A stretch of DNA of 64,000 bases from Longimicrobiales bacterium (GCA_965198065.1 CBDAON010000004.1:1344001-1408000), one strand, 5' to 3'. Shown: positions 3,912 to 20,126, counted from the first letter of the stretch. Notes: generated by a model not told the origin, from the letters alone. Numbers and translations: made by a program.

Positions 3912-5090
3912 CTATCTCTCGCCCGCGAGATAGGCCGCCCAATCGTCCATCAGCCGGCGCCTGCGCTCGAAGAGGTCCGAACGCGCATAGGCCGCTTCCA
4001 CCTTGTTGCGAACCGCATGGGCCAACGCGGCCTCGGCGACCTCACGCGGTGCGTTGGAACACTCGCCGCACCAGTCCCTGAAGCTCGAACGAAAGCCGTG
4101 CGGCACAGCCGCGATACCCAGGTCTCGAAGTAGCGTGGAGAGTCTGCTGCCGGGAAATGCGCGGCCCTCCGACGACGGGAAAACCAGACCGCTGCTGCCG
4201 CCGAGCGTCCGCGCCTCCTCGAGGATCTCCATGGCGCGCCCGGACAGCGGCACCCTGTGCGGGCGATGGGCTTTCGTGCGTTCGGCGGGAACCGTCCACT
4301 CCCGAGCCTCCAGGTCGATTTCATCCCACTGTGCCAAGCGAACCTCTCCCGAGCGGGCCGCCGTCAACACCAGGAACTCGAAGGCGAGTTTCGTGGCCGG
4401 GTAAGCGTGCGACTTCCGCACCATCTCCATCGCGCCCGCGACCTTCGAGTGAGGCAACGCGCGCATGTGCCGGATTACGGCTTGCTGTCGGCCAAGCGCT
4501 TGACCGAGCACATCGCTGGCGGGGTTGTCCGGCCGAAGCCCCATCGCCACCGCCCACTTCATCACCGCCCCGATGCGCTGGCGCACCCGCCGGGCCGTCA
4601 CCTGCTTGTCGTGCCAGATCGGTGTCAGAACCGCCAGAACGTCGGCTGTCGTTATCTCGCCGACCGGTCGATTGCCCAGCTGTGGGAATGCATAGACGCG
4701 CAGGCTCGAGACCCAGTCCTGCGCATGCCTGGGGCTGCGCCAGCCCGGCCGAAGCTGTTCCAGAACACGGGCGGCCGCCTCGGCGAACGTGGGCATGTCC
4801 CGGACCTTGTATCGCTCGGTACGCGGATCGCCGCCCGAGCGCGCGATCTTGCGGTTCATGAATGCCTTCTCGCGCGCCTCGGCCAGCGATACCAGCTGGT
4901 AGCCCCCGAGCCCCAGCGTGCGGTTTCGACCCTGGATCCGCAGACGCTGCTCCCATCGGCGCGCGCCGGATCGGTCCACGCGCAGATAGAGGCCGTTCCC
5001 ATCGCAGTAGTATCCGGGCTTGGCGCTGCGCACGAAGGCCGCGCTGAGTGCGTTGTGCGGCCGCCTGCCTCGGTGTTTGGGCAAATCCAA
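3912..5090 (-). CDS. P4-like tyrosine integrase (arm-binding N-domain)
   Basis: DGNGLYL N-domain, LTAARSGE (R), HGFRSSFRDW (HxxR), ALAH, AAY; start uncertain (TTG 5090/5084, ORF open to 5147). Confidence 0.95.
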   Translation of the reverse strand: MDLPKHRGRRPHNALSAAFVRSAKPGYYCDGNGLYLRVDRSGARRWEQRLRIQGRNRTLGLGGYQLVSLAEAREKAFMNRKIARSGGDPRTERYKVRDMPTFAEAAARVLEQLRPGWRSPRHAQDWVSSLRVYAFPQLGNRPVGEITTADVLAVLTPIWHDKQVTARRVRQRIGAVMKWAVAMGLRPDNPASDVLGQALGRQQAVIRHMRALPHSKVAGAMEMVRKSHAYPATKLAFEFLVLTAARSGEVRLAQWDEIDLEAREWTVPAERTKAHRPHRVPLSGRAMEILEEARTLGGSSGLVFPSSEGRAFPGSRLSTLLRDLGIAAVPHGFRSSFRDWCGECSNAPREVAEAALAHAVRNKVEAAYARSDLFERRRRLMDDWAAYLAGER

Positions 5091-5250
5091 TTCGGGAGTC
5101 CCCGTATAAAGTATCGTATGTTGTATACGGGAACATAGTGGACACACAGCGACACTGCAACCGGGAGTATCCTACATAACTCACTGTGGTAACTCTAGTT
5201 ATATGATATTACTAGACATGTATGGATCGTATTGGAATCTATGTGTAGCA

Positions 5251-7690: not shown

Positions 7691-8027
7691 AGGCGGACAA
7701 GGCGGAGACCGTGTCAGGCTTGATCGGAGGGACGCCGGTGGGGATCCGGGGCGTCCCACCGCGGCGAATCCGACCAGAGGCGGTAGATGGGGCGGCGGCG
7801 TGGGTCCGCAAGGTTGTTCTGGATGTCATGGATCGTTCAGCCCGAGAACGATGTGTTCTTGCTGACCCTAGAGAGCGAGCCGGCCACGTTCGTCAGGGGA
7901 CGGCAGCCAAGCGATCTTGCTTTCAGCGGCCTGCTGCAGTGGCGGTTCGGCGGCGAGGCGTACTGCACGGGTTCCGTTCGAACCATAAGTCTCACCTGCA
8001 AGCTGACACCCCACGGGGGTAGGAACA

Positions 8028-8723
8028 ATGGTAACAAGCAACGTCATACAGCGTATCTTCAAGATTCGACGAGGTGAGTCATCAGGTACAGCCTTTACCA
8101 CGGACCGCGGCGGTCGGCAATACGTCGTCACTGCCCGTCACGTTGTCGAAGGCATCGTGCCGGGAGAGACGATTGATATATGGCACGACGAGAGATGGAA
8201 GGCTCTGGATGTCCACATCGTGGGAATTGGTGAAGGAGAATTGGATATCACCGTACTGACCGCCTCGATCCAGGTTTCACCTACGCATCCACTGGAAGCA
8301 AGCGCCGGAGGGGTGACCTACAGTCAGCCGGTGTATCTCCTTGGGTTTCCGTACGGCCGCGACGGTGGCGGTACGGAAATAAACCGTGGCTTACCCATTC
8401 CATTCGTGAAGTCGGGGATTGTCAGTGCCATGGAGTTCGGCGATGTCAACAGGATCTACATCGACACGCACGCAAACGAAGGGTTCAGCGGTGGCCCGGT
8501 CGTGTTCCATCCTCAAGACAAGCCGAAGGAGGCGAATGAGCTTCGAGTGGCAGGGGTCGTCACCGGGTACCTTCAACATGCCCGAACGGTTCATGACGAC
8601 AGCGGGAACCGGTTGGGTAGGGTAACGGAGAACGCTGGCATTGTTGTCGCGCTTGGGATGCGGCAGGTCGTTGATTTGATCGACGCAAACCCCATCGGCT
8701 TCAAGTTGCCTACAGTTGCGTGA
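8028..8723 (+). CDS. Trypsin-like serine protease, no signal peptide
   Basis: VVTARHVV (His), LDI (Asp), LGFP, NEGFSGGPV (Ser). Confidence 0.85.
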   Translation: MVTSNVIQRIFKIRRGESSGTAFTTDRGGRQYVVTARHVVEGIVPGETIDIWHDERWKALDVHIVGIGEGELDITVLTASIQVSPTHPLEASAGGVTYSQPVYLLGFPYGRDGGGTEINRGLPIPFVKSGIVSAMEFGDVNRIYIDTHANEGFSGGPVVFHPQDKPKEANELRVAGVVTGYLQHARTVHDDSGNRLGRVTENAGIVVALGMRQVVDLIDANPIGFKLPTVA

Positions 8724-9117
8724 TTTGGCGCGTGCGTTTCGTCACGATGTTTAGGATCTGCTTCCGTGTCGATGTCCGAAGAGCCGAAGTGATCATCTCG
8801 ATCGCGGCCCACTTGCGGAGGAGTGCCAACAGGCACGGTCTGCTCACAGCGATGTCACCGTGCGATCCGGCGTCGGAACGCGGCGAGGGGGGGCTCGGTG
8901 ACGATCGGGGGCGAGGTCAAGATCGCATCGTCCCGACCATCGATCCCTGCGGGAAGGCTGCGGCGCTAGGGCGCCGAATGACCACTAATTCGCGCACGCC
9001 TTTGGCGGATGAGAGCCTGGTGCAGGGGGCGTTCCGGCCTGCCAGGGTCGCTCTCTCTCCTGCAAGACGCCTATTAGGGGGATTTGGTATCCCGTTTCAT
9101 CGAGCAGCCCGGCTGGC

Positions 9118-9960
9118 TCACTGGCAGTACCCCTCGTTGACACGCAGGTAGTCGAGGATGAAGGCGTCTAGGTATGCGCTCACCAGCTCACGGACGGCCA
9201 CCCGTTGGCCCGGTTCGTCTGCAACGATTACGGATGATCTCCCGTCGAGTTCCCATGACATACGCTCCCACGTCTCAACGACCTTGAACTCACCCGACAA
9301 GGGGTCCCAAACCTCCTTCGGGAACCATGCCCGGCTCCCGTCCCAGGCAATTCCCAGTGCGAGGGGATCGCCGTTCTCCCAATCATCACCATTCCAAATT
9401 CCTGCGGACCGCAGGCGATTCTCGGCCATTCTCCGGTTCTCCCTGAGCAACTCCCCACTCGGATCGGTCGGGCCGATGTAGACGGCATTCAACTTCACCG
9501 GCGCGCATTCGGTGAAGAGCGCGAACCGTTCATCCGCGAGGGTGGCAAGCGAGTCGAGTTCGGCCGATGCAGCTTCCAGAGCGTATATCCTCGCTAACAT
9601 TGAGTCGGCTCGCGCGAGCGCCCCGCGCATCTGCTCCGATCCTGTAGCGACACGACGGGCAACTTCGTCTCGGAAAGCCCGAAAGTTGTCTAGATCGTCG
9701 ATCACGACGTCGGTATCAGCCTCCCGGAAACCCTCCCAGAAAGCCTCCCGTATGGAATCGTTGAACACCCGGCGGGAGTACAGGGAATCGTGCCGGACGA
9801 CGGCCTCTGCGTAGCTGCGTTCAGCCTGATCGCCTCGGATCTCCTCCGCTAGGTCCGGATTGCCCACTTCCGGTTGCTCTGCCTCAGGAGTTGCCGGCGC
9901 ACAGCTTCCGAGCGCGACGGTAAGGAAGATAAGCGCGACGGCCCGGTACGTGTGTGTCAT
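9118..9960 (-). CDS. Hypothetical lipoprotein
   Basis: Signal peptide with lipobox VALGSC. Confidence 0.65.
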   Translation of the reverse strand: MTHTYRAVALIFLTVALGSCAPATPEAEQPEVGNPDLAEEIRGDQAERSYAEAVVRHDSLYSRRVFNDSIREAFWEGFREADTDVVIDDLDNFRAFRDEVARRVATGSEQMRGALARADSMLARIYALEAASAELDSLATLADERFALFTECAPVKLNAVYIGPTDPSGELLRENRRMAENRLRSAGIWNGDDWENGDPLALGIAWDGSRAWFPKEVWDPLSGEFKVVETWERMSWELDGRSSVIVADEPGQRVAVRELVSAYLDAFILDYLRVNEGYCQ

Positions 9961-12600: not shown

Positions 12601-13467
12601 TCAGACCGGTTGCAGGTTGACGAACTCCGTAAAGTCGTCCGTACCATCGGACTGGATCGCATACCGGAATCGGAGTTCATCTCTGTCGTCGCGACGCCTG
12701 GCATTCTTGATTGCGAGCACTTGAATGGCTGCGTAGAAGCCCCCCGTGTTGCGCAGTACGACGATTTGGCCGAGGGATGGTTTCCGAGAGCGAGACGTGT
12801 AGTCCAGCGACGCGGCACACTCCACCTGCGAGATCGACCTGCATCCGCAGGCCAGCCCGACGCCGTTGATGGACGGGGGATCGTTGTAAACATGAATCCT
12901 AGTGTCACTCGCACTAGACCACTTAGTTTCGAATTCCAGCACTCCAAAGCCGATGACGTAGCGCCCGTTGTAGCTGCTGTAGTCGAATACGACTTCGCCG
13001 GTCGGCGATGTCATTCTTGGCGGCGGTACCTGGGACGCTTTGCCGGCGAAGGGCTGGACGCCCAGTTTGTTGGCGATCATTGTCGCGAGTTGCGCGGGCG
13101 TGTGCTTCCGGGCGCATTCGTAGATGACGTCCGTCGGCAGACCGGGCACCCGCGTGTCATCGAAGCGAACGGGAAGGATGTACTCGTCCTTCTCCTCGAT
13201 CATGCGGCTAAGGGCCGACCGCCTTTCATGATTGGGCCAAGCCTTTGACACATAGGCTTCGGAAATGAACATTACGACGTAGGCGCTCTTTTCGGCGAAT
13301 GCTTCATGGAATGCTTCCGCGCCGCGCCGGCCCCAAAGACCGACCTTTTCGAAGCCGTCGTAGAAGACGTCGATGGATCGGCTCTGGAGATGCCGTGCGA
13401 CCTCTTCCACATAATCCCGCTGTTCCCCGGCAAAAGACAGCGCTACTTGATACTTCGGGCCGGTCAT
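12601..13467 (-). CDS. TIR-domain protein with uncharacterised C-terminal beta-rich domain
   Basis: YQVALSFAGEQR, VFYD, FISEAYVSKAWPNHE (putative catalytic Glu), ILPVRFDD. Confidence 0.9.
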   Translation of the reverse strand: MTGPKYQVALSFAGEQRDYVEEVARHLQSRSIDVFYDGFEKVGLWGRRGAEAFHEAFAEKSAYVVMFISEAYVSKAWPNHERRSALSRMIEEKDEYILPVRFDDTRVPGLPTDVIYECARKHTPAQLATMIANKLGVQPFAGKASQVPPPRMTSPTGEVVFDYSSYNGRYVIGFGVLEFETKWSSASDTRIHVYNDPPSINGVGLACGCRSISQVECAASLDYTSRSRKPSLGQIVVLRNTGGFYAAIQVLAIKNARRRDDRDELRFRYAIQSDGTDDFTEFVNLQPV

Positions 13468-13810: not shown

Positions 13811-13998
13811 CTTCTCCTGGAATATGGACGGGTTGATGATCCCTAGGAGAACAGTTGGAGAAGAGCGGGGGCCAAGCTACGCGTAACGAAAGGCTGGGTG
13901 AGCGGTCCGTCGAACGGGGTGCCGGTCTGGGAACTGTACGTGTCCCACGCTGTAGAGCTAGCGATGCAGTTCAGACATCCACCAGGGATGCTCAGCAA

Positions 13999-15375
13999 AT
14001 GTCGAACGATGTGAATTCCCGCCTCTCCGATCTACTGGCCAACCTCCGTGAGTCCCCTGAAGTAGAAGTCAAGGGCTGGCTCGACCTGGAGAACAACAAC
14101 CAGCACAAGGCACGTCTCGCGAAGGCAACTCTTGCGTTGGCGAATCATGGTGGTGGCTGGGTTGTGTTGGGATTCAAGGAGGTTGATGGGACCATGGTGG
14201 AGGCTGAAGACTATCCAGCCACGCTCAACCCATATAACCAGGATCTGATCAACGGAATCGTTCGACGGTATTGCGAGCCAGAGTTTCATTGCACGGTGCA
14301 CCTGGTTCCGCATGGAGGCAAGATTTTTCCGGTGGTGGAGGTACCGGGTGGGCATGACGTTCCTGTGCGTGCCCGACGGGCAGGGGCCGATGAGAAGATT
14401 CTTCAGATGAATGCCATCTATATTCGCAAGCCGGGCCCTCGTAGCGAGCCACCGCAAAGCGGACAGGAATGGGACCGTCTCCTAGCTCGGTGCCTGAGCA
14501 ACCGAAGTGATGAACTGCTTGGCCATATTCAACGCATAGTGAGCGGGGCCGCGTCGCAAGAACGGCTTGCATCCGACAACGAGCGCCTTGATGAGTGGAT
14601 TACCACATGCTTCGATCGTTGGTCTTCACTGATCGATCAGTTACCGCCAGAAGCCATAGGGCCTAGGTTTTCATACGGCTGTTACAACTTCGCGTATGAG
14701 ATCGTGGGCGATGCGCGGGAGACTACGCTTGCCCAGCTACCGCATGTCTTGCAACGAAGCGTTGTCCACCTTACAGGATGGCCACCGTTTTGGTTTCCAA
14801 CACGAAAGGGAATCGCACCATACCCTGCGGATGGTGCCGTGGAATGCTGGATAGGCGGAGACACCGATGCAGAGCCGGGGGCACATGCTCCGGATGATTC
14901 GGATTTTTGGAGGATCAGTCTGGATGGATATGCCTTTTTGTTAAGAGGCTATCGCGAGGATCAAGGTGATCTGCAGTTCGCAGGGCAAGGAACCGCGGAG
15001 CCCGGAACGGTTTTCAGTGTCACAAAGCCGGTATGGCGCGTTGGCGAGACACTCCTGCAGGCCCAACGCCTAGCAGAGAATCTGTTCGAAGGCCCTACAA
15101 CAATTCGATTCTCTGCTAAGTACACTGGGCTCAAGGGACGATCATTGGTGAGAATAAATGGAGGAAGGCATATAATGAGAGGATTGATCTCCCGTCAAGA
15201 AGCAATCACCCCAAAAACTGTGACTATAGACTCAACGACTATCAGTACCAGTCTGCCTCAAATAGTTCATAGAATTTTGTCGCCACTATACGAGTTATTC
15301 AGTTTCTTTCAGCTCCCAATGGACCTAGTCGTGGAAGAGCTAGACTGTATGCGTAAGAGAGGCATTACTAGCTGA
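13999..15375 (+). CDS. Schlafen/AlbA_2-domain protein
   Basis: RESPEVEVKGWLD, LAKATLALANHGGGWVVLG, IYIR motifs; long C-terminal domain of unknown function. Confidence 0.85.
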   Translation: MSNDVNSRLSDLLANLRESPEVEVKGWLDLENNNQHKARLAKATLALANHGGGWVVLGFKEVDGTMVEAEDYPATLNPYNQDLINGIVRRYCEPEFHCTVHLVPHGGKIFPVVEVPGGHDVPVRARRAGADEKILQMNAIYIRKPGPRSEPPQSGQEWDRLLARCLSNRSDELLGHIQRIVSGAASQERLASDNERLDEWITTCFDRWSSLIDQLPPEAIGPRFSYGCYNFAYEIVGDARETTLAQLPHVLQRSVVHLTGWPPFWFPTRKGIAPYPADGAVECWIGGDTDAEPGAHAPDDSDFWRISLDGYAFLLRGYREDQGDLQFAGQGTAEPGTVFSVTKPVWRVGETLLQAQRLAENLFEGPTTIRFSAKYTGLKGRSLVRINGGRHIMRGLISRQEAITPKTVTIDSTTISTSLPQIVHRILSPLYELFSFFQLPMDLVVEELDCMRKRGITS

Positions 15376-15424
15376 TGAGAATACAAAAGAGGTTGCAATC
15401 CAAAGCTGATCCTGAGCGGTGGCC

Positions 15425-16456
15425 CTAGAGCGAGCGGTTCTCCTGGTCGAAGAACGTATCGCCATCGTACGAGGAGAGCTTGAACACTTCGAATCCGGAC
15501 TGGAGTAGCCCAAGTAACTTGGTCTTGGCTTCGCCTTCGCTCATAGAGTAGTTGACTACATGCTCGAGCTTCTCCCGCTCGACAGGCAAGTGCTCGACAG
15601 AAAGGTCTCGGAAAGTGTGCCAAAGGACGGAGAGAGCCTTGAGCACTTCAGAGGTGTGCCAGTCGAAGAGGATCGCGGCCTGCTCCTTAAGGTAGTCTCG
15701 CTCGAAGTACTGCTTGAACTGGGGCAAGGCCAGGTTGAAGTCGAGTTGAAAGTAGCCGTCGAACGAGTAATTCTCTTCGTTGCGATCCCGAGTTAGATGG
15801 TCGCGAGGGATGCCCCACGGGCTGTCGTCGTCGAGAAGGGGCTCTGGGAATACGAAAAAGGTGAGTTCAAGGGACTTGGGTAGACTCCGGTAGTCCTCCC
15901 ACACGTCTCGGTGGGCCCTGACCGGCTTTCGATCGAATTGAAGCGTCGCGCATGCCCCCGGAAGGTCAAGATCGAGGCGCATTCGATACGACTGCGCATT
16001 TTCGTGGAGACGTCGAGCTAGCTCTTCATTGAAATGGGGACTTCGTTCATGGAGTTGGTATGACTGCTTTCCCAGTAGCGTCGTGACTGACCGAGCCAGG
16101 TAGAACTTCGCGTAATACGTCGTGATGTTGAGCCAATGAAGCAGGCCGCCTTCCATCAAGTTGCGGGCTGCTATGTAGTTGTAGAACCCCTTGTAGAAGT
16201 GGAACAGCGCCTCATGGAGGATGATCGGACGAACCGCGACGAGCTCATCCCCTTCGAGCGAAAGCTCGATCCGCCCGTTGCTCGATGGCGTGTCATCGAG
16301 GCGTAACGCATCTCGTGTCGCCCTCGCCAGGTTCAGTTCACTTGGGCGTCTCGGCAGCTTTTTTGCAGGCCAGTAGTCGGTGTTGGCGTAGAAGCTTTGG
16401 AGATCATCTTTACTTGTCATGCGAGCCCTTAATTCAGACCACAGGTAACGCGCCAC
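15425..16456 (-). CDS. Divergent HEPN-like protein (putative RNase)
   Basis: AARNLMEGG..W..ITTYYAKFYLARS and RDRNEENY resemble HEPN YYA.F..A and R(N)xxxY motifs; start could be ATG 16420. Confidence 0.6.
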   Translation of the reverse strand: MARYLWSELRARMTSKDDLQSFYANTDYWPAKKLPRRPSELNLARATRDALRLDDTPSSNGRIELSLEGDELVAVRPIILHEALFHFYKGFYNYIAARNLMEGGLLHWLNITTYYAKFYLARSVTTLLGKQSYQLHERSPHFNEELARRLHENAQSYRMRLDLDLPGACATLQFDRKPVRAHRDVWEDYRSLPKSLELTFFVFPEPLLDDDSPWGIPRDHLTRDRNEENYSFDGYFQLDFNLALPQFKQYFERDYLKEQAAILFDWHTSEVLKALSVLWHTFRDLSVEHLPVEREKLEHVVNYSMSEGEAKTKLLGLLQSGFEVFKLSSYDGDTFFDQENRSL

Positions 16457-16475
16457 TGTGCCGGCCAGGCATGTC

Positions 16476-16513
16476 CGCTAACGGATCTTGGCAGACGTGT
16501 CCGATTGTTGCAC
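16476..16513 (-). other. Internally deleted attC remnant
   Basis: GTGCAAC AATCGG ... GTTAGCG followed by GACATGCCT, the same 3' context as the attC at 17430. Confidence 0.5.
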
Positions 16514-16545
16514 TTCAAACTTGATCTCAAGAGTCCTGCCGGCGA

Positions 16546-17370
16546 CTACAGGATGCTATCCATGATCCCGCGAGCAATGTCGAGAGACGCCTGGTCCCTG
16601 TCAGGCCACTGTGTGATCGGGATACCATCCTCTGGTAGCCCTTGCAGCTCGCCGAAAGGCGTGACGTTCCAATCACAAGCGCGCAGGACCACAGGAATAA
16701 CTCGAGCCGTGCCATCCCTGTGTCGGCGAAGAGCGATCTCACCTTCGACTTCGTAGCAATATCGAGATGCCAGAAAGTCAGGACTCATGAAAAGTAGGAT
16801 AACGTGAGCCTGCTCGATCCTCTCGTCGACCTCGGTTCGCCATTCGTCGCCCGCAGGAATCATCCGGTCGTGCCATTTCACGATCTCACCAAGGCGTTCG
16901 CGCACTACGAGTTGCAGCCGGACCACGTCCATTAGCGCTTCATCTTCATGCGTGTAGGAGAAGAAGATCTCGATGGGGCGTGCCGCAATGGGCGGCTGAG
17001 GGGCACCGCGCTGAGGAGGAGACGCCGCCAGTTGGCGCTCCGACGGCGGCGGATCGAGCGCTAGCAATCGGGTCGCGATAGCCCTGCAGCGCTCGGCCCC
17101 AGTGTGCCCCGGCCTGTAGGACTCAGCGTACTCGACCAGTTCACGGAGGATCTCCCCCACTAGCTGATCTGGCGCACGATCCCAGAAGCTTCGCATCCGG
17201 TTGGCCTTCGAGCCGCTATGCCCCTCAAGATACGGAGCACCGTCGATGTCGACGTCGAAGTCCCGGAAAAAGTCAGCAAACGTCCGGTCACTGAAGTTCA
17301 AGACGTAGCCGCCACCCATCTCGAGAAACTCTTCGAGGACATTCTTTTCCCGAAACCTCAGCGATGCCAT
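16546..17370 (-). CDS. AbiJ-type N-terminal domain fused to TIR domain
   Basis: EKNVLEEFLEMGGGYVLNFSDRTF...SKANRMRSFW, Pro-rich linker, IFFSYTHED...WHDRMIPAGDEW...SPDFLASRYCYEVE. Confidence 0.85.
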   Translation of the reverse strand: MASLRFREKNVLEEFLEMGGGYVLNFSDRTFADFFRDFDVDIDGAPYLEGHSGSKANRMRSFWDRAPDQLVGEILRELVEYAESYRPGHTGAERCRAIATRLLALDPPPSERQLAASPPQRGAPQPPIAARPIEIFFSYTHEDEALMDVVRLQLVVRERLGEIVKWHDRMIPAGDEWRTEVDERIEQAHVILLFMSPDFLASRYCYEVEGEIALRRHRDGTARVIPVVLRACDWNVTPFGELQGLPEDGIPITQWPDRDQASLDIARGIMDSIL

Positions 17371-17429
17371 GCGGCTCCAACCGTCTTCATGGGACTCCTA
17401 ACTTAAGATTGTGCCGTTCAAGGCATGTC

Positions 17430-17518
17430 TTCTAACGTTCAGAGGTTGCCAGCGCGGCTCCGTCCGCGCTTCACCGGAGCGAACGTAGTGAGCGAAGGCG
17501 GCAACCGCATTGTTATCG
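17430..17518 (-). other. Integron attC recombination site
   Basis: Minus strand CGATAAC-AATGC-GGTTGCC...GGCAACC-TCTGAAC-GTTAGAA, 89 bp, internal hairpin; lies between two co-oriented ORFs. Confidence 0.75.
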
Positions 17519-17582
17519 GACGGCGCCACCTGATAGCCAACCGCACCGAAAAAGTGCGCGCTGATCCCACAGGGATTCTCGC

Positions 17583-18015
17583 TCACCTGCGGCTGGGCCA
17601 GAAACGTCTATCTGGGAACACGCTCTCCAGACGCTCGATCAGCGCGTCGGCGGCTCTGCTGGGACTGGGATACGATTCTCCGCCCATGGTGAAGCCAGCG
17701 TTTAGCCGCAGGTCCAATTGCTCGGTACCGACCAGTTCGGGGTCGGCACCAAGCGAGAAGACATCAACAACGGAGTCTCCGATCACCGATAAGCGGACTT
17801 CGGCGAGGCTAGGCGGGTTGCCATTCACCACGGGTCTTCGCGCCGCCTCGCGCGGGAGCAGAACTGCGATAGCCGTCACTGTCGGGTCCCGATCTGGCAC
17901 TATCACGGTTCGCCGAATCGGACTTACTTCGAAGCGAGAGGAACGCCCTCTCGCGAAGAGCTCCGATCTAAGTTCCTCAAGCGCTGCCGCATTTATCACC
18001 AAGTCGGATGGGTCT
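17583..18015 (-). pseudogene. 5'-truncated hypothetical cassette ORF
   Basis: Open frame begins at an IS256 end and is followed by attC. Confidence 0.55.
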
Positions 18016-18357
18016 CGAGCTAGGATCAAAGGGTGTGTAAAAAGAGAGGCGACGTACCTTTGCGCTGAGATTTAAAGCAGCGAGCCCGGGTGACAGCCCG
18101 GGGAAAGGAACGTCGCCTCATGAGAGAGGATATCGCGGGAGCCCAGGGTGCGTCCAGCAGGCCGATGTGGGAGACGCTCGAGGGGATGGTTCGGGAGAAG
18201 GCGCAGGAGTTCATCCAACAGATCATGGAGGAGGAAGTGACGGAGTTGTTAGGCCGGGAGAAGTCAGAGCGCAGGAGTACGGTGGACTCGGCCGAGGGCT
18301 ACCGCAACGGATATGGCAAGCCGAGGCGGTTGGCGATGAGCTCGGGCACGATCACGC
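18016..18357 (+). mobile_element. IS256-family left end and transposase N-terminal fragment
   Basis: GGTGTGTAAAAAG end motif; IMEEEVTELLGR..ER...GYRNGY. Confidence 0.85.
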
Positions 18358-18764: not shown

Positions 18765-20000
18765 TCAACGGACCGGTTCGGCCTCCGGGTCGCGACTCTT
18801 GTCGGCCAGGTACGCAGCCCAATCGTCCATGAGCCGACGTCGGCGCTCGAACAGGTCAGTGCGCCGATAGGCCGCCTCGACCCTGTTCTGGACGACATGC
18901 GCCAAGGCTGCCTCGATGACCTCGCGCGGGTGGTCCGTCTCCTCGGCTGCCCAATCGCGGAAGCTGGAGCGAAACCCGTGCGGCACGGCCGCGATCCCGT
19001 GCTTCCCGAGCATCCGGCGCAGTTGCTTCTCCTCGAGCTGCTTGCCGAGCCGATTGGGAAACAGATACGGACTGGTTCCCTTCACCAGCGTCCGTGCCCC
19101 GTCCAGAATCTCCAGTGCACGACCACACAGCGGTACCCGGTGCTCGCGGTTCGCCTTCGTCCGCCTGGCCGGGACAGTCCACACACCCTCGTCCCGATCA
19201 ATCTCGGTCCATTCGGCCCACCGCACCTCACCCCATCGTGCCGCCGTCAGCACCAGGAACTCGAACGCCAGCCGGACGGCCAGCGGCACCGTTGATGCCC
19301 GCGCAGTCTGGATGGCCGCGGCCACCTCGCGATGCGGCAGCGCCCGCATGTGCTGCACGACGTCACGCTGTGGACCCAGGACCGGGTCGATCCGGTCACA
19401 GGGGTTGTCGATCCGGAACTCCATCGCCACCGCCCACTCCAACACCGCGCGGATGCGCTGCCGCAACCGCCGGGCGGTGTCCGCCTTCGTGTGCCAGATG
19501 GGAGCGAGGATCTCCAGCACGTCGGCGCTAGTGACCTCCGAGACCGGCATCTTCCCGATGCGCGGGAAGGCGTACCGCTCGAAGGTCAAGATCCACTCGC
19601 GGCCGTGCGCCCGATTTCGCCAGCCGGCTTGCTTCTGTTCTACCACACGCGCGGTGGCTTCGGCGAAGCTCGGCACACCCTCCGCACGACGCTTCTCGGC
19701 AAGCGGGTCGCCACCCTCGCGGGCCAGCTTACGGTTGGCCAGCGCCTTTTCCCGGGCCTCGGCGAGGGAGACCAGCGCGACGCTGCCGAGCCCGAGCTCG
19801 CGGCGCCGACCCCGGATGAGCAGGCGCTGAATCCAGCTTCGGGTTCCGCTCGGCTGGACGAAGAGGTACAACCCGTTGCCGTCCGCGTGTCTTCCAGGCG
19901 GGGCCGTGCGCACGAAGGCGGCCGACAGGGCCTTGTCTGGATGGCGGCCCTTGGGCTTGGTTTTCCGCGGCGGAGTGGCCTTGTTCGTTACAGTAACCAT
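18765..20000 (-). CDS. P4-like tyrosine integrase
   Basis: Paralog of 3912-5090; LTAARWGE, HGFRSSFRDW, ALAH, AAY intact. Confidence 0.95.
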   Translation of the reverse strand: MVTVTNKATPPRKTKPKGRHPDKALSAAFVRTAPPGRHADGNGLYLFVQPSGTRSWIQRLLIRGRRRELGLGSVALVSLAEAREKALANRKLAREGGDPLAEKRRAEGVPSFAEATARVVEQKQAGWRNRAHGREWILTFERYAFPRIGKMPVSEVTSADVLEILAPIWHTKADTARRLRQRIRAVLEWAVAMEFRIDNPCDRIDPVLGPQRDVVQHMRALPHREVAAAIQTARASTVPLAVRLAFEFLVLTAARWGEVRWAEWTEIDRDEGVWTVPARRTKANREHRVPLCGRALEILDGARTLVKGTSPYLFPNRLGKQLEEKQLRRMLGKHGIAAVPHGFRSSFRDWAAEETDHPREVIEAALAHVVQNRVEAAYRRTDLFERRRRLMDDWAAYLADKSRDPEAEPVR

Positions 20001-20126
20001 CCCCGCATAATATAGGGGATGCAAGCGGATATCAATGGATGCTAAGTCGGAAGAATCCGCTAGGCTAGGTCAGTAACTCGTTGTTATAGAAGCTAGTTAT
20101 GGACTTAACTGGACGATACTGCACAC

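Follow-up and report, generated by a model that had tools for sequence, protein, structure and literature searches.

A probable row of three decayed gene cassettes in a Longimicrobiales genome and a candidate tyrosine-recombinase system other than IntI

The attC site of integrons is defined by AAC and GTT boxes, an L stem, an unpaired central spacer and a length of 57-141 nucleotides (nt), and its defining extrahelical base is found in L'', on the arm that does not carry the cleaved AAC (PMC5027507). The integron integrase, IntI, is described as having a defining and necessary additional domain (PMC9668308). Clusters of attC sites lacking an integron integrase nearby (CALINs) are a known class (PMC8618304), and defence genes are carried by integron cassettes (bioRxiv 10.1101/2024.07.02.601686, 10.1101/2024.07.02.601719). 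We analysed a row of three genes in a stretch of 64,000 nt from a Longimicrobiales bacterium (G000:C4:1344001-1408000; this whole stretch is called the window below), which is part of a 3.05-Mb assembly that is 87.6% complete. An initial annotation had read the row as a CALIN with two attC sites and with TIR and HEPN-like genes. Our comparison with relatives makes it probable that these genes form a row of three cassettes, decayed and without a recombinase, which an integron-like system with a tyrosine recombinase other than IntI assembled and which was later stranded in an island rich in insertion sequences (IS). The row comprises the following features.

15425-16420, minus strand: HEPN-like gene, an open reading frame (ORF) of 331 amino acids (aa), co-oriented with the other two
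16546-17370, minus strand: TIR gene, an ORF of 274 aa
17430-17518, minus strand: intact bulge-less site resembling attC, 89 nt long, with AAC and GTT boxes, a 7-bp L stem and spacers of 5 and 7 nt
17583-18016, minus strand: ORF3, at least 143 aa, the sole open frame on the minus strand, with its 5' end running into an IS
18017-18357, plus strand: IS256-family fragment (Pfam Transposase_mut, E 0.0013, a weak match); BLAST matches to other copies in the assembly begin at 18017

The three ORFs are all on the minus strand, in agreement with the initial annotation, which was also right that the array is cut upstream by IS256: the fragment, with 79-87% identity to three other copies in the assembly, truncates ORF3 from 18017 onwards. 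ORF3 itself gave no match in Pfam, PADLOC, NCBIfam or Atlas.

The intact site had been described as a well-formed attC, and it is a real structured site, but not a canonical one. We built a covariance model, R1, from 13 sites found in three relatives, leaving out the window's own copy; the search of 40 relatives from which it derives had returned similar DNA stretches in G008, G011, G014, G024 and G038, several of them in arrays. On R1 the window's site scored 83.6 bits (E 6e-17) and was the only match in the assembly. In the R1 alignment, 32 cells were changed on both sides compared with 9.8 after shuffling, and the named structure paired at 92% compared with 26-51% for slid partners, both figures being inflated by the relatedness of the 13 sites. 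The site is supported because of this homology and covariation and not because of its folding energy, which was no better than that of shuffled sequences (z -0.30 and 0.04); folding z-scores lent no support to the second proposed site, at 16476-16513, either. No match to 17430-17518 was found in plasmids.

With its AAC and GTT boxes, L stem, unpaired central spacer and length, the site agrees with the definition of attC. The extrahelical base in L'' is missing: no bulge is present on the 5' arm of the L stem, and an extra base lies on the 3' arm at position 7 (the scan was neutral as to arm). Parts of the stretch also occur in 20 sequencing runs, five of which were compared (X1, X15, X17, X18 and X19; X15 is possibly the source sample), whereas runs sharing few words with the stretch do not enter the comparison. 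Base 17451 disrupts the eighth stem pair in the window, and the X18 and X19 contigs have a pairing base there. Because it is without the L'' bulge and, across the order, goes with an insertion-less recombinase, as described below, 17430-17518 is, judged by its sequence, not an attC of the canonical IntI type.

Being the single intact site, it is a solo site and not a cluster; it is the one significant site in the assembly, the second having E 5.7, and the CALIN label does not hold in this respect. The absence of IntI, claimed for the window, extends to the whole assembly, in which nothing exceeds the TIGR02249 cut-off. The suggested look for intI elsewhere in the genome yielded only a C-terminal fragment of 59 residues, 1.1 Mb away. 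About 600 nt from this fragment lies a canonical 62-nt attC with an L'' bulge (C4:241899-241960), and the region that holds both (G000:C4:241899-242732; L001 844-1677) is a relic of a classical integron in the same genome.

A tyrosine recombinase was found directly upstream of the sites, on the same strand, in the relatives G038 and G028. It consists of Phage_int_SAM_4 and Phage_integrase domains, lacks the IntI insertions, carries about 100 extra N-terminal residues and reaches about 201 bits on TIGR02249, for which the cut-off is 265. Its association with the sites was surveyed in 150 genomes of the order, 28 of which have R1-type sites, counting the recombinase at 299 bits or above. It was present in 21 of the 28 genomes with sites and in 10 of the 122 without; four A5 rows (G004, G010, G031 and G472; 250-279 bits, none with sites) had been dropped, and the latter count becomes 14/122 if they are kept. 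IntI occurred in 6 of the 28 and in 24 of the 122 (one of the 24 being the unpublished G470), and 17 genomes combine sites and the insertion-less recombinase with no IntI match. The first site lies 0.4-2.1 kb downstream of the recombinase, on the same contig and strand, in 12 of the 21 genomes. Furthermore, R1 gave no match at E of 1 or below in 23 loci (9 + 14) beside IntI. Two genomes, G326 (C3, C10) and G443 (C1, C6), contain both systems, each enzyme beside its own site type. A literature search returned no description of an insertion-less recombinase with such arrays, most subscription papers and the bioRxiv supplements being out of its reach.

The two site classes were compared with a scan that permitted a bulge on either arm. 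Among 130 candidates from 17 recombinase-headed loci, 125 had at least seven unbroken L pairs and 2 had a 5'-arm bulge at position 3-4; since these loci had been picked by R1, which favours bulge-less sites, the purity of the class is partly built in, whereas the adjacency to the recombinase is not. In the 23 IntI-side loci a 5'-arm bulge was seen in 28 of 39 raw candidates, a set that includes background matches and reverse-strand duplicates. The window's site falls into the bulge-less class, and the solo site at C4:241899-241960 into the bulged one.

The arrays of the relatives also follow a cassette logic. Of 99 units lying between consecutive sites, 79 carry, behind GTTA, three variable bases complementary to the far end of the same unit, compared with a mean of 19.7 and a maximum of 33 in 2,000 within-locus shuffles, and the two ends of a single site match in only 16 of 127. 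A GTTRnnnGMMAT start was found at 64 of 127 family sites and at 0 of 20 IntI-type sites. At position 11 of the start, 121 of 127 have A, and usually G stands at the matching far-end position; this conserved mismatch would form a G-T pair on the bottom strand only. By eye, the first unit behind the recombinase stop codon starts at a GTT that no hairpin precedes, consistent with a site like attI and with crossover at GTT. A pattern resembling attI, approximately TTCG, 11 nt and GTTA, was likewise seen by eye ahead of the first cassette in L122, L124, L126, L129, L133 and L086. We rejected the inverted reading, in which the downstream gene would take the hairpin with it, because a hairpin is lacking between the recombinase and the first cassette. 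The sequences of these arrays suggest that they recombine.

At the window locus, the bulge-less site is accompanied by the following cassette boundaries and remnants.

17422-17436, minus strand: TIR cassette start, with the GTT core and the family motif
16468-16482, minus strand: HEPN-like cassette start, a copy of GTTAGnnGACATGCCT; the X18 and X19 contigs diverge from the window at 16480, at the GTT
16487-16501, minus strand: likely decayed end of the TIR cassette, with the hairpin body gone and 4 nt left before the next GTT
16505-16524, minus strand: IS30-like terminus in the untranslated region 3' of the TIR gene, within its cassette; it contains the left box drawn in the initial annotation

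The start motif GTTRnnnGMMAT occurs eight times in the assembly, twice at this locus and each time there ahead of an ORF. The end sequence that the initial annotation had reported as shared by both joints is indeed shared: GTTAGnnGACATGCCT has exactly two copies in the assembly, both here, the second being the HEPN-like cassette start. The first 15 nt of the TIR cassette are identical to the starts of two cassettes in the recombinase-headed array of G463. No gene related to the window's ORFs was found in the arrays fetched from relatives. The intact site terminates the ORF3 cassette, whose start was lost to the IS; the expected start was not found, the best fit being 9/15.

The other joint, which separates the TIR and HEPN-like genes, had been drawn as a collapsed attC at 16476-16513. 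In that form it is not an attC, scoring 5.2 bits on R1 (E 5.7). A true cassette start, that of the HEPN-like gene, lies at its right end, but its left box, 16507-16513, falls within the 20-nt IS30-like end, and the likelier decayed end is 16487-16501. This stretch fits the end predicted from the TIR cassette start at 11 of 15 positions (shuffle p 0.005, with the expectation set after the family pattern had been seen), and another X1 contig matches 16491-16524 and keeps an intact TAAC at the position of the decayed end. The IS30-like end matches, in 19 of 20 nt, a Paraburkholderia plasmid at a stretch that directly precedes the gene of an IS30 transposase (NF033563, E 1.5e-92), the BLAST matches of 16505-16524 on their own being not significant (E 0.1-5). 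A 19-mer of it recurs once elsewhere in the assembly (G000:C4:478505-478523), and the combination of an IS30-like end with a cassette end recurs in a different X1 cassette (window 16491-16524). IS30-type ends may favour these cassette ends. For the HEPN-like cassette the best downstream fit was 6/15 (p about 1), that is, no end of its own was found. None of the three cassettes is complete, because the start of ORF3 was lost to IS256, the hairpin of the TIR cassette was lost and the end of the HEPN-like cassette is absent.

The initial annotation had proposed that a cassette array was captured by the island. A cassette origin of all three genes is supported, but a canonical IntI-type system is not. 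In the reading that we consider probable, the parent recombinase, with Phage_int_SAM_4 and Phage_integrase domains and an extra N-terminal module weakly resembling HARP, would have stood upstream of the array on the same strand, as it does in 12 relatives. Cassettes would have been inserted at the GTT directly behind its stop codon, because the first cassette starts at such a GTT without a preceding hairpin. The substrate would be folded single strands of sites of 85-180 nt whose L stem is unbroken and whose 3' arm carries an extra base; covariation shows this structure, and folding in vivo and the choice of strand are presumed. The ends of each cassette are complementary to each other and not to those of neighbours, as the shuffles show statistically, and this is the mark of circularising units. 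The three cassettes of this genome are predicted to be immobile as cassettes now, and the locus is an orphan because no such recombinase is present in the assembly. Across the order, the balance of evidence leans towards a second cassette-capture system beside classical integrons, with an insertion-less recombinase and its own bulge-less hairpins, that moves defence genes, among them the TIR gene and the new HEPN-like family of this locus, between distant phyla.

Several observations weigh against this reading. The best score for the insertion-less recombinase in the assembly, 87.6% complete as it is, was 171 bits against the threshold of 299, and what lies upstream of the row is the IS256 fragment and not a recombinase on the same strand; because the recombinase is absent from the assembly, the window locus is linked to it by site type alone. 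In the survey, 7 of the 28 genomes with sites have no recombinase match and 10 genomes with the recombinase have no sites, kin among the genomes are not independent, and 21 site matches fall outside the listed rows. The recombinase and the sites are split between contigs in 8 of the 21 genomes, the recombinase of G024 has two weak sites upstream of it on the opposite strand, and a 291-bit copy in G451 likewise has a site on the other strand. HARP matches were obtained for 3 of 7 full-length recombinases, all below the cut-off (E 0.0045-0.21). The share of class purity that is built in and the folding energy of the intact site, both given above, also belong here. As to the cargo, 16 of 18 loci with relatives of the HEPN-like gene have no clear site, the only full-length TIR relative in the order (G034) has no cassette start, and a joint in the X18 and X19 contigs, described below, breaks at GTT yet is no clean G|TT product. 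Finally, IntI could still use bulge-less sites, because removal of the bulge left two of three tested sites active with IntI1 (PMC5027507).

The last point, that some attC sites stay recombinogenic after deletion of the bulge, also speaks for an ordinary CALIN, in which canonical attC cassettes had been placed by IntI and were left behind after intI was lost or relocated. The boxes, the spacer lengths and the size of 17430-17518 agree with attC, the assembly holds the IntI C-terminal fragment and the canonical bulged attC, and IntI was found in 30 of 151 genomes of the order. We nevertheless regard this explanation as unlikely. The site has no L'' bulge, and its extra base is on the opposite arm, a position that lowers bottom-strand recombination (PMC5027507). 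Moreover, the sites are not enriched with IntI, the 23 IntI-side loci contain no R1 site, 17 genomes have sites and the other recombinase with no IntI match, and a single intact site does not make a cluster.

Still less probable is that the TIR and HEPN-like genes were fused into a selected two-gene defence system when the middle site was lost, for example one in which a TIR-made signal activates a HEPN effector; the initial annotation had likewise suggested that the two were fixed as one unit. The hairpin between the genes is gone, and they are co-oriented and 125 nt apart. In X1 and X17, from two studies (P1 and P12), both genes are adjacent on one contig at about 99% identity, with 23 differences in about 2,060 nt, and this adjacency shows shared descent in close strains only. 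In X18 and X19, from two other studies (P13 and P14), by contrast, contigs join 13847 to 16480 and carry TIR and ORF3 without HEPN and AlbA; the joint has 30 and 116 letters on its short side and 5 extra letters between 13847 and 16480, and both runs also contain low-depth HEPN pieces. X1 has no cover over ORF3, which carries no weight as evidence. When co-occurrence was checked in other genomes, as had been suggested, a TIR relative was found in 0 of the 18 loci with HEPN relatives (several with short flanks), and G034 has the TIR gene without a HEPN relative. The pair has no terminal site of its own, and no sensor domain was found on the HEPN-like protein. A fixed two-gene unit is contradicted by TIR occurring without HEPN in X18 and X19, by the 18 loci and by the missing terminal site, and the two genes are likely independent single-gene defence cargo rather than a pair.

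For the X18 and X19 joint, we rejected a clean G|TT excision as its origin because five letters lie between the two sides; an IS end beside CTAG could explain it. At 13843-13846 and 18020-18023, the two IS-like boundaries of the region open with CTAG and continue with GATCA or GGATCA, which may be an IS end or a target in common.

Least probable is that the sites are structured intergenic repeats that gather near the recombinase gene and are not its substrates: some site clusters have no recombinase match nearby (the second array of G443, G473 C5 and G429 C16) and the folding energy of the window's site is unremarkable, but unit ends match each other and the two ends of one site mostly do not, which is unexpected for a repeat copied whole, and the arrays begin at the GTT directly behind the recombinase.

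Turning to the cargo, the 274-aa protein comprises an N-terminal helical domain common to abortive-infection family proteins and a C-terminal TIR_2 domain (Pfam E 6e-16, above the cut-off; PADLOC ThsB-like E 2.8e-48). Its residues 1-107 share 42-49% identity with 36 plasmid records, of which 24 of 30 listed are annotated 'abortive infection family protein', and a cyclase-domain protein has this N-terminal domain as well. The label AbiJ-TIR is supported as to the TIR_2 domain and an N-terminal domain like that of abortive-infection proteins, but the Pfam AbiJ N-terminal domain gave no match to the protein, and Foldseek returned nothing at E of 0.001 or below. E207 and E209 are invariant in 19 TIR sequences, and we take E207 to be the catalytic Glu of the TIR domain. 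The protein is predicted to cleave NAD, and family knowledge suggests a role as sensor plus NADase. It has 657 relatives, dozens of them full-length at 70-84% identity; in 400 genomes of the phylum and 400 of the order, a full-length relative was found in one, G034. No relative was found in viral contigs, none covering 80% in plasmids and none in a cassette context.

Pfam offers no name for the 331-aa protein, of which 18 relatives were found, and its model has a predicted local distance difference test score of 82.6. Its best structural matches are HEPN domains (4nqf with Z 7.7, root-mean-square deviation 3.9 and 139 aligned residues; 2hsb with Z 6.4), and several HEPN entries are in the top 12, with Z below 8, the level that excludes a common helical arrangement. 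Foldseek gave no match for it, and the nearest named Atlas cluster, HEPN_AbiV at 0.77, is a lead only. In the family, H171, R214, N218 and Y219 are invariant (alignment A1 numbering). The catalytic motif of HEPN proteins is Rx4-6H, and the protein has a Tyr, Y219, where this motif would have its His. From the model, it represents an unnamed family with a likely HEPN fold and is predicted to be an RNase or toxin; the HEPN-like label is borne out moderately, by top structural matches of Z 7.7 or less.

By eye, the 18 loci with HEPN relatives lie near restriction and other defence-like genes. Bulge-less sites were found beside the relative in two of them, L046 (R1 19.6 bits, E 0.1) and L051, the latter from a Saprospiraceae genome with an A5-like recombinase of 294 bits and no IntI over the cut-off. 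A third locus, L056, has a Paenibacillus relative with the motif of a cassette start upstream of it and, downstream, an end that matches in part (7900-7995, 9047-9200), with no scored site; the locus was left out of the count because it has the start motif only.

One gene converges on the row.

13999-15375, plus strand: Schlafen/AlbA_2-domain protein (Pfam SLFN_AlbA_2, E 4.7e-08), a convergent neighbour whose membership of the cassette row is putative at most

The contig with this gene in X1 and X18 runs on into different sequence past 15388, and 15376-15424 has a weak likeness to a site arm that is not significant. A second TIR_2 protein (288 aa, 12601-13467, minus strand) also flanks the row. 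Together with these flanking genes, the row sits between two integrases with arm-binding domains (3912-5147 and 18765-20024), and the stretch between them looks like a small defence island. It also contains a 231-aa trypsin-like protease (8028-8723, plus strand) that matches PADLOC protease-domain models.

The window locus itself is a relic, and what it mainly contributes are two defence-gene candidates, one of them from a HEPN-like family that has no name. The wider bearing lies with the arrays of the relatives. The additional domain of IntI and the L'' bulge are regarded as the lock and key that define integron recombination. Across many genomes the arrays described here lack both at once but keep the cassette architecture, and each site class goes with one of the two enzymes, in G326 and G443 inside one genome. 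If a second system exists, many arrays that appear integrase-less to IntI-based tools would be complete systems, and strand choice would be solved without the known bulge-pocket mechanism, which bears on how folded single-stranded sites are recognised and on how integrons arose. A pool of defence cassettes would likely be overlooked by IntI-based searches.

The HEPN-like protein shares with the HEPN superfamily (4nqf, AF0298 2hsb, sacsin HEPN, Csm6) a helical core that aligns over 116-143 residues and conserved H and R-N-x-x-N-Y motifs, but differs in an inserted beta hairpin and extensions, in the Tyr for the motif His and in having no Pfam assignment. Like proteins of the AbiJ type, the TIR protein has the N-terminal domain of 'abortive infection family' proteins; unlike them, it has no Pfam AbiJ_NTD match and carries TIR in place of the abortive-infection C-terminal part. 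Its TIR_2 domain matches the model of Thoeris ThsB, as in bacterial TIR defence proteins, whereas no match to the Thoeris effector ThsA was found among the six neighbouring proteins scanned. The reverse-orientation integrons of Spirochaetota (PMC9668308), compared by their description, resemble the arrays of 12 relatives in that the integrase gene is not divergent from the array; their integrases are treated there as IntI, whereas the recombinases described here are below the TIGR02249 cut-off and lack the insertions. With canonical integrons and CALINs (PMC8618304, PMC5027507), the system shares single-gene units, AAC and GTT boxes, an L-stem hairpin with an unpaired spacer, a co-oriented array, a crossover read at GTT and defence-type cargo. 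It differs from canonical integrons in that its sites have an extra base on the other arm instead of a bulge in L'', in that the matching cassette ends are longer and a conserved motif follows GTT, and in a partner recombinase that carries an extra N-terminal module and not the additional domain described for IntI (PMC9668308).

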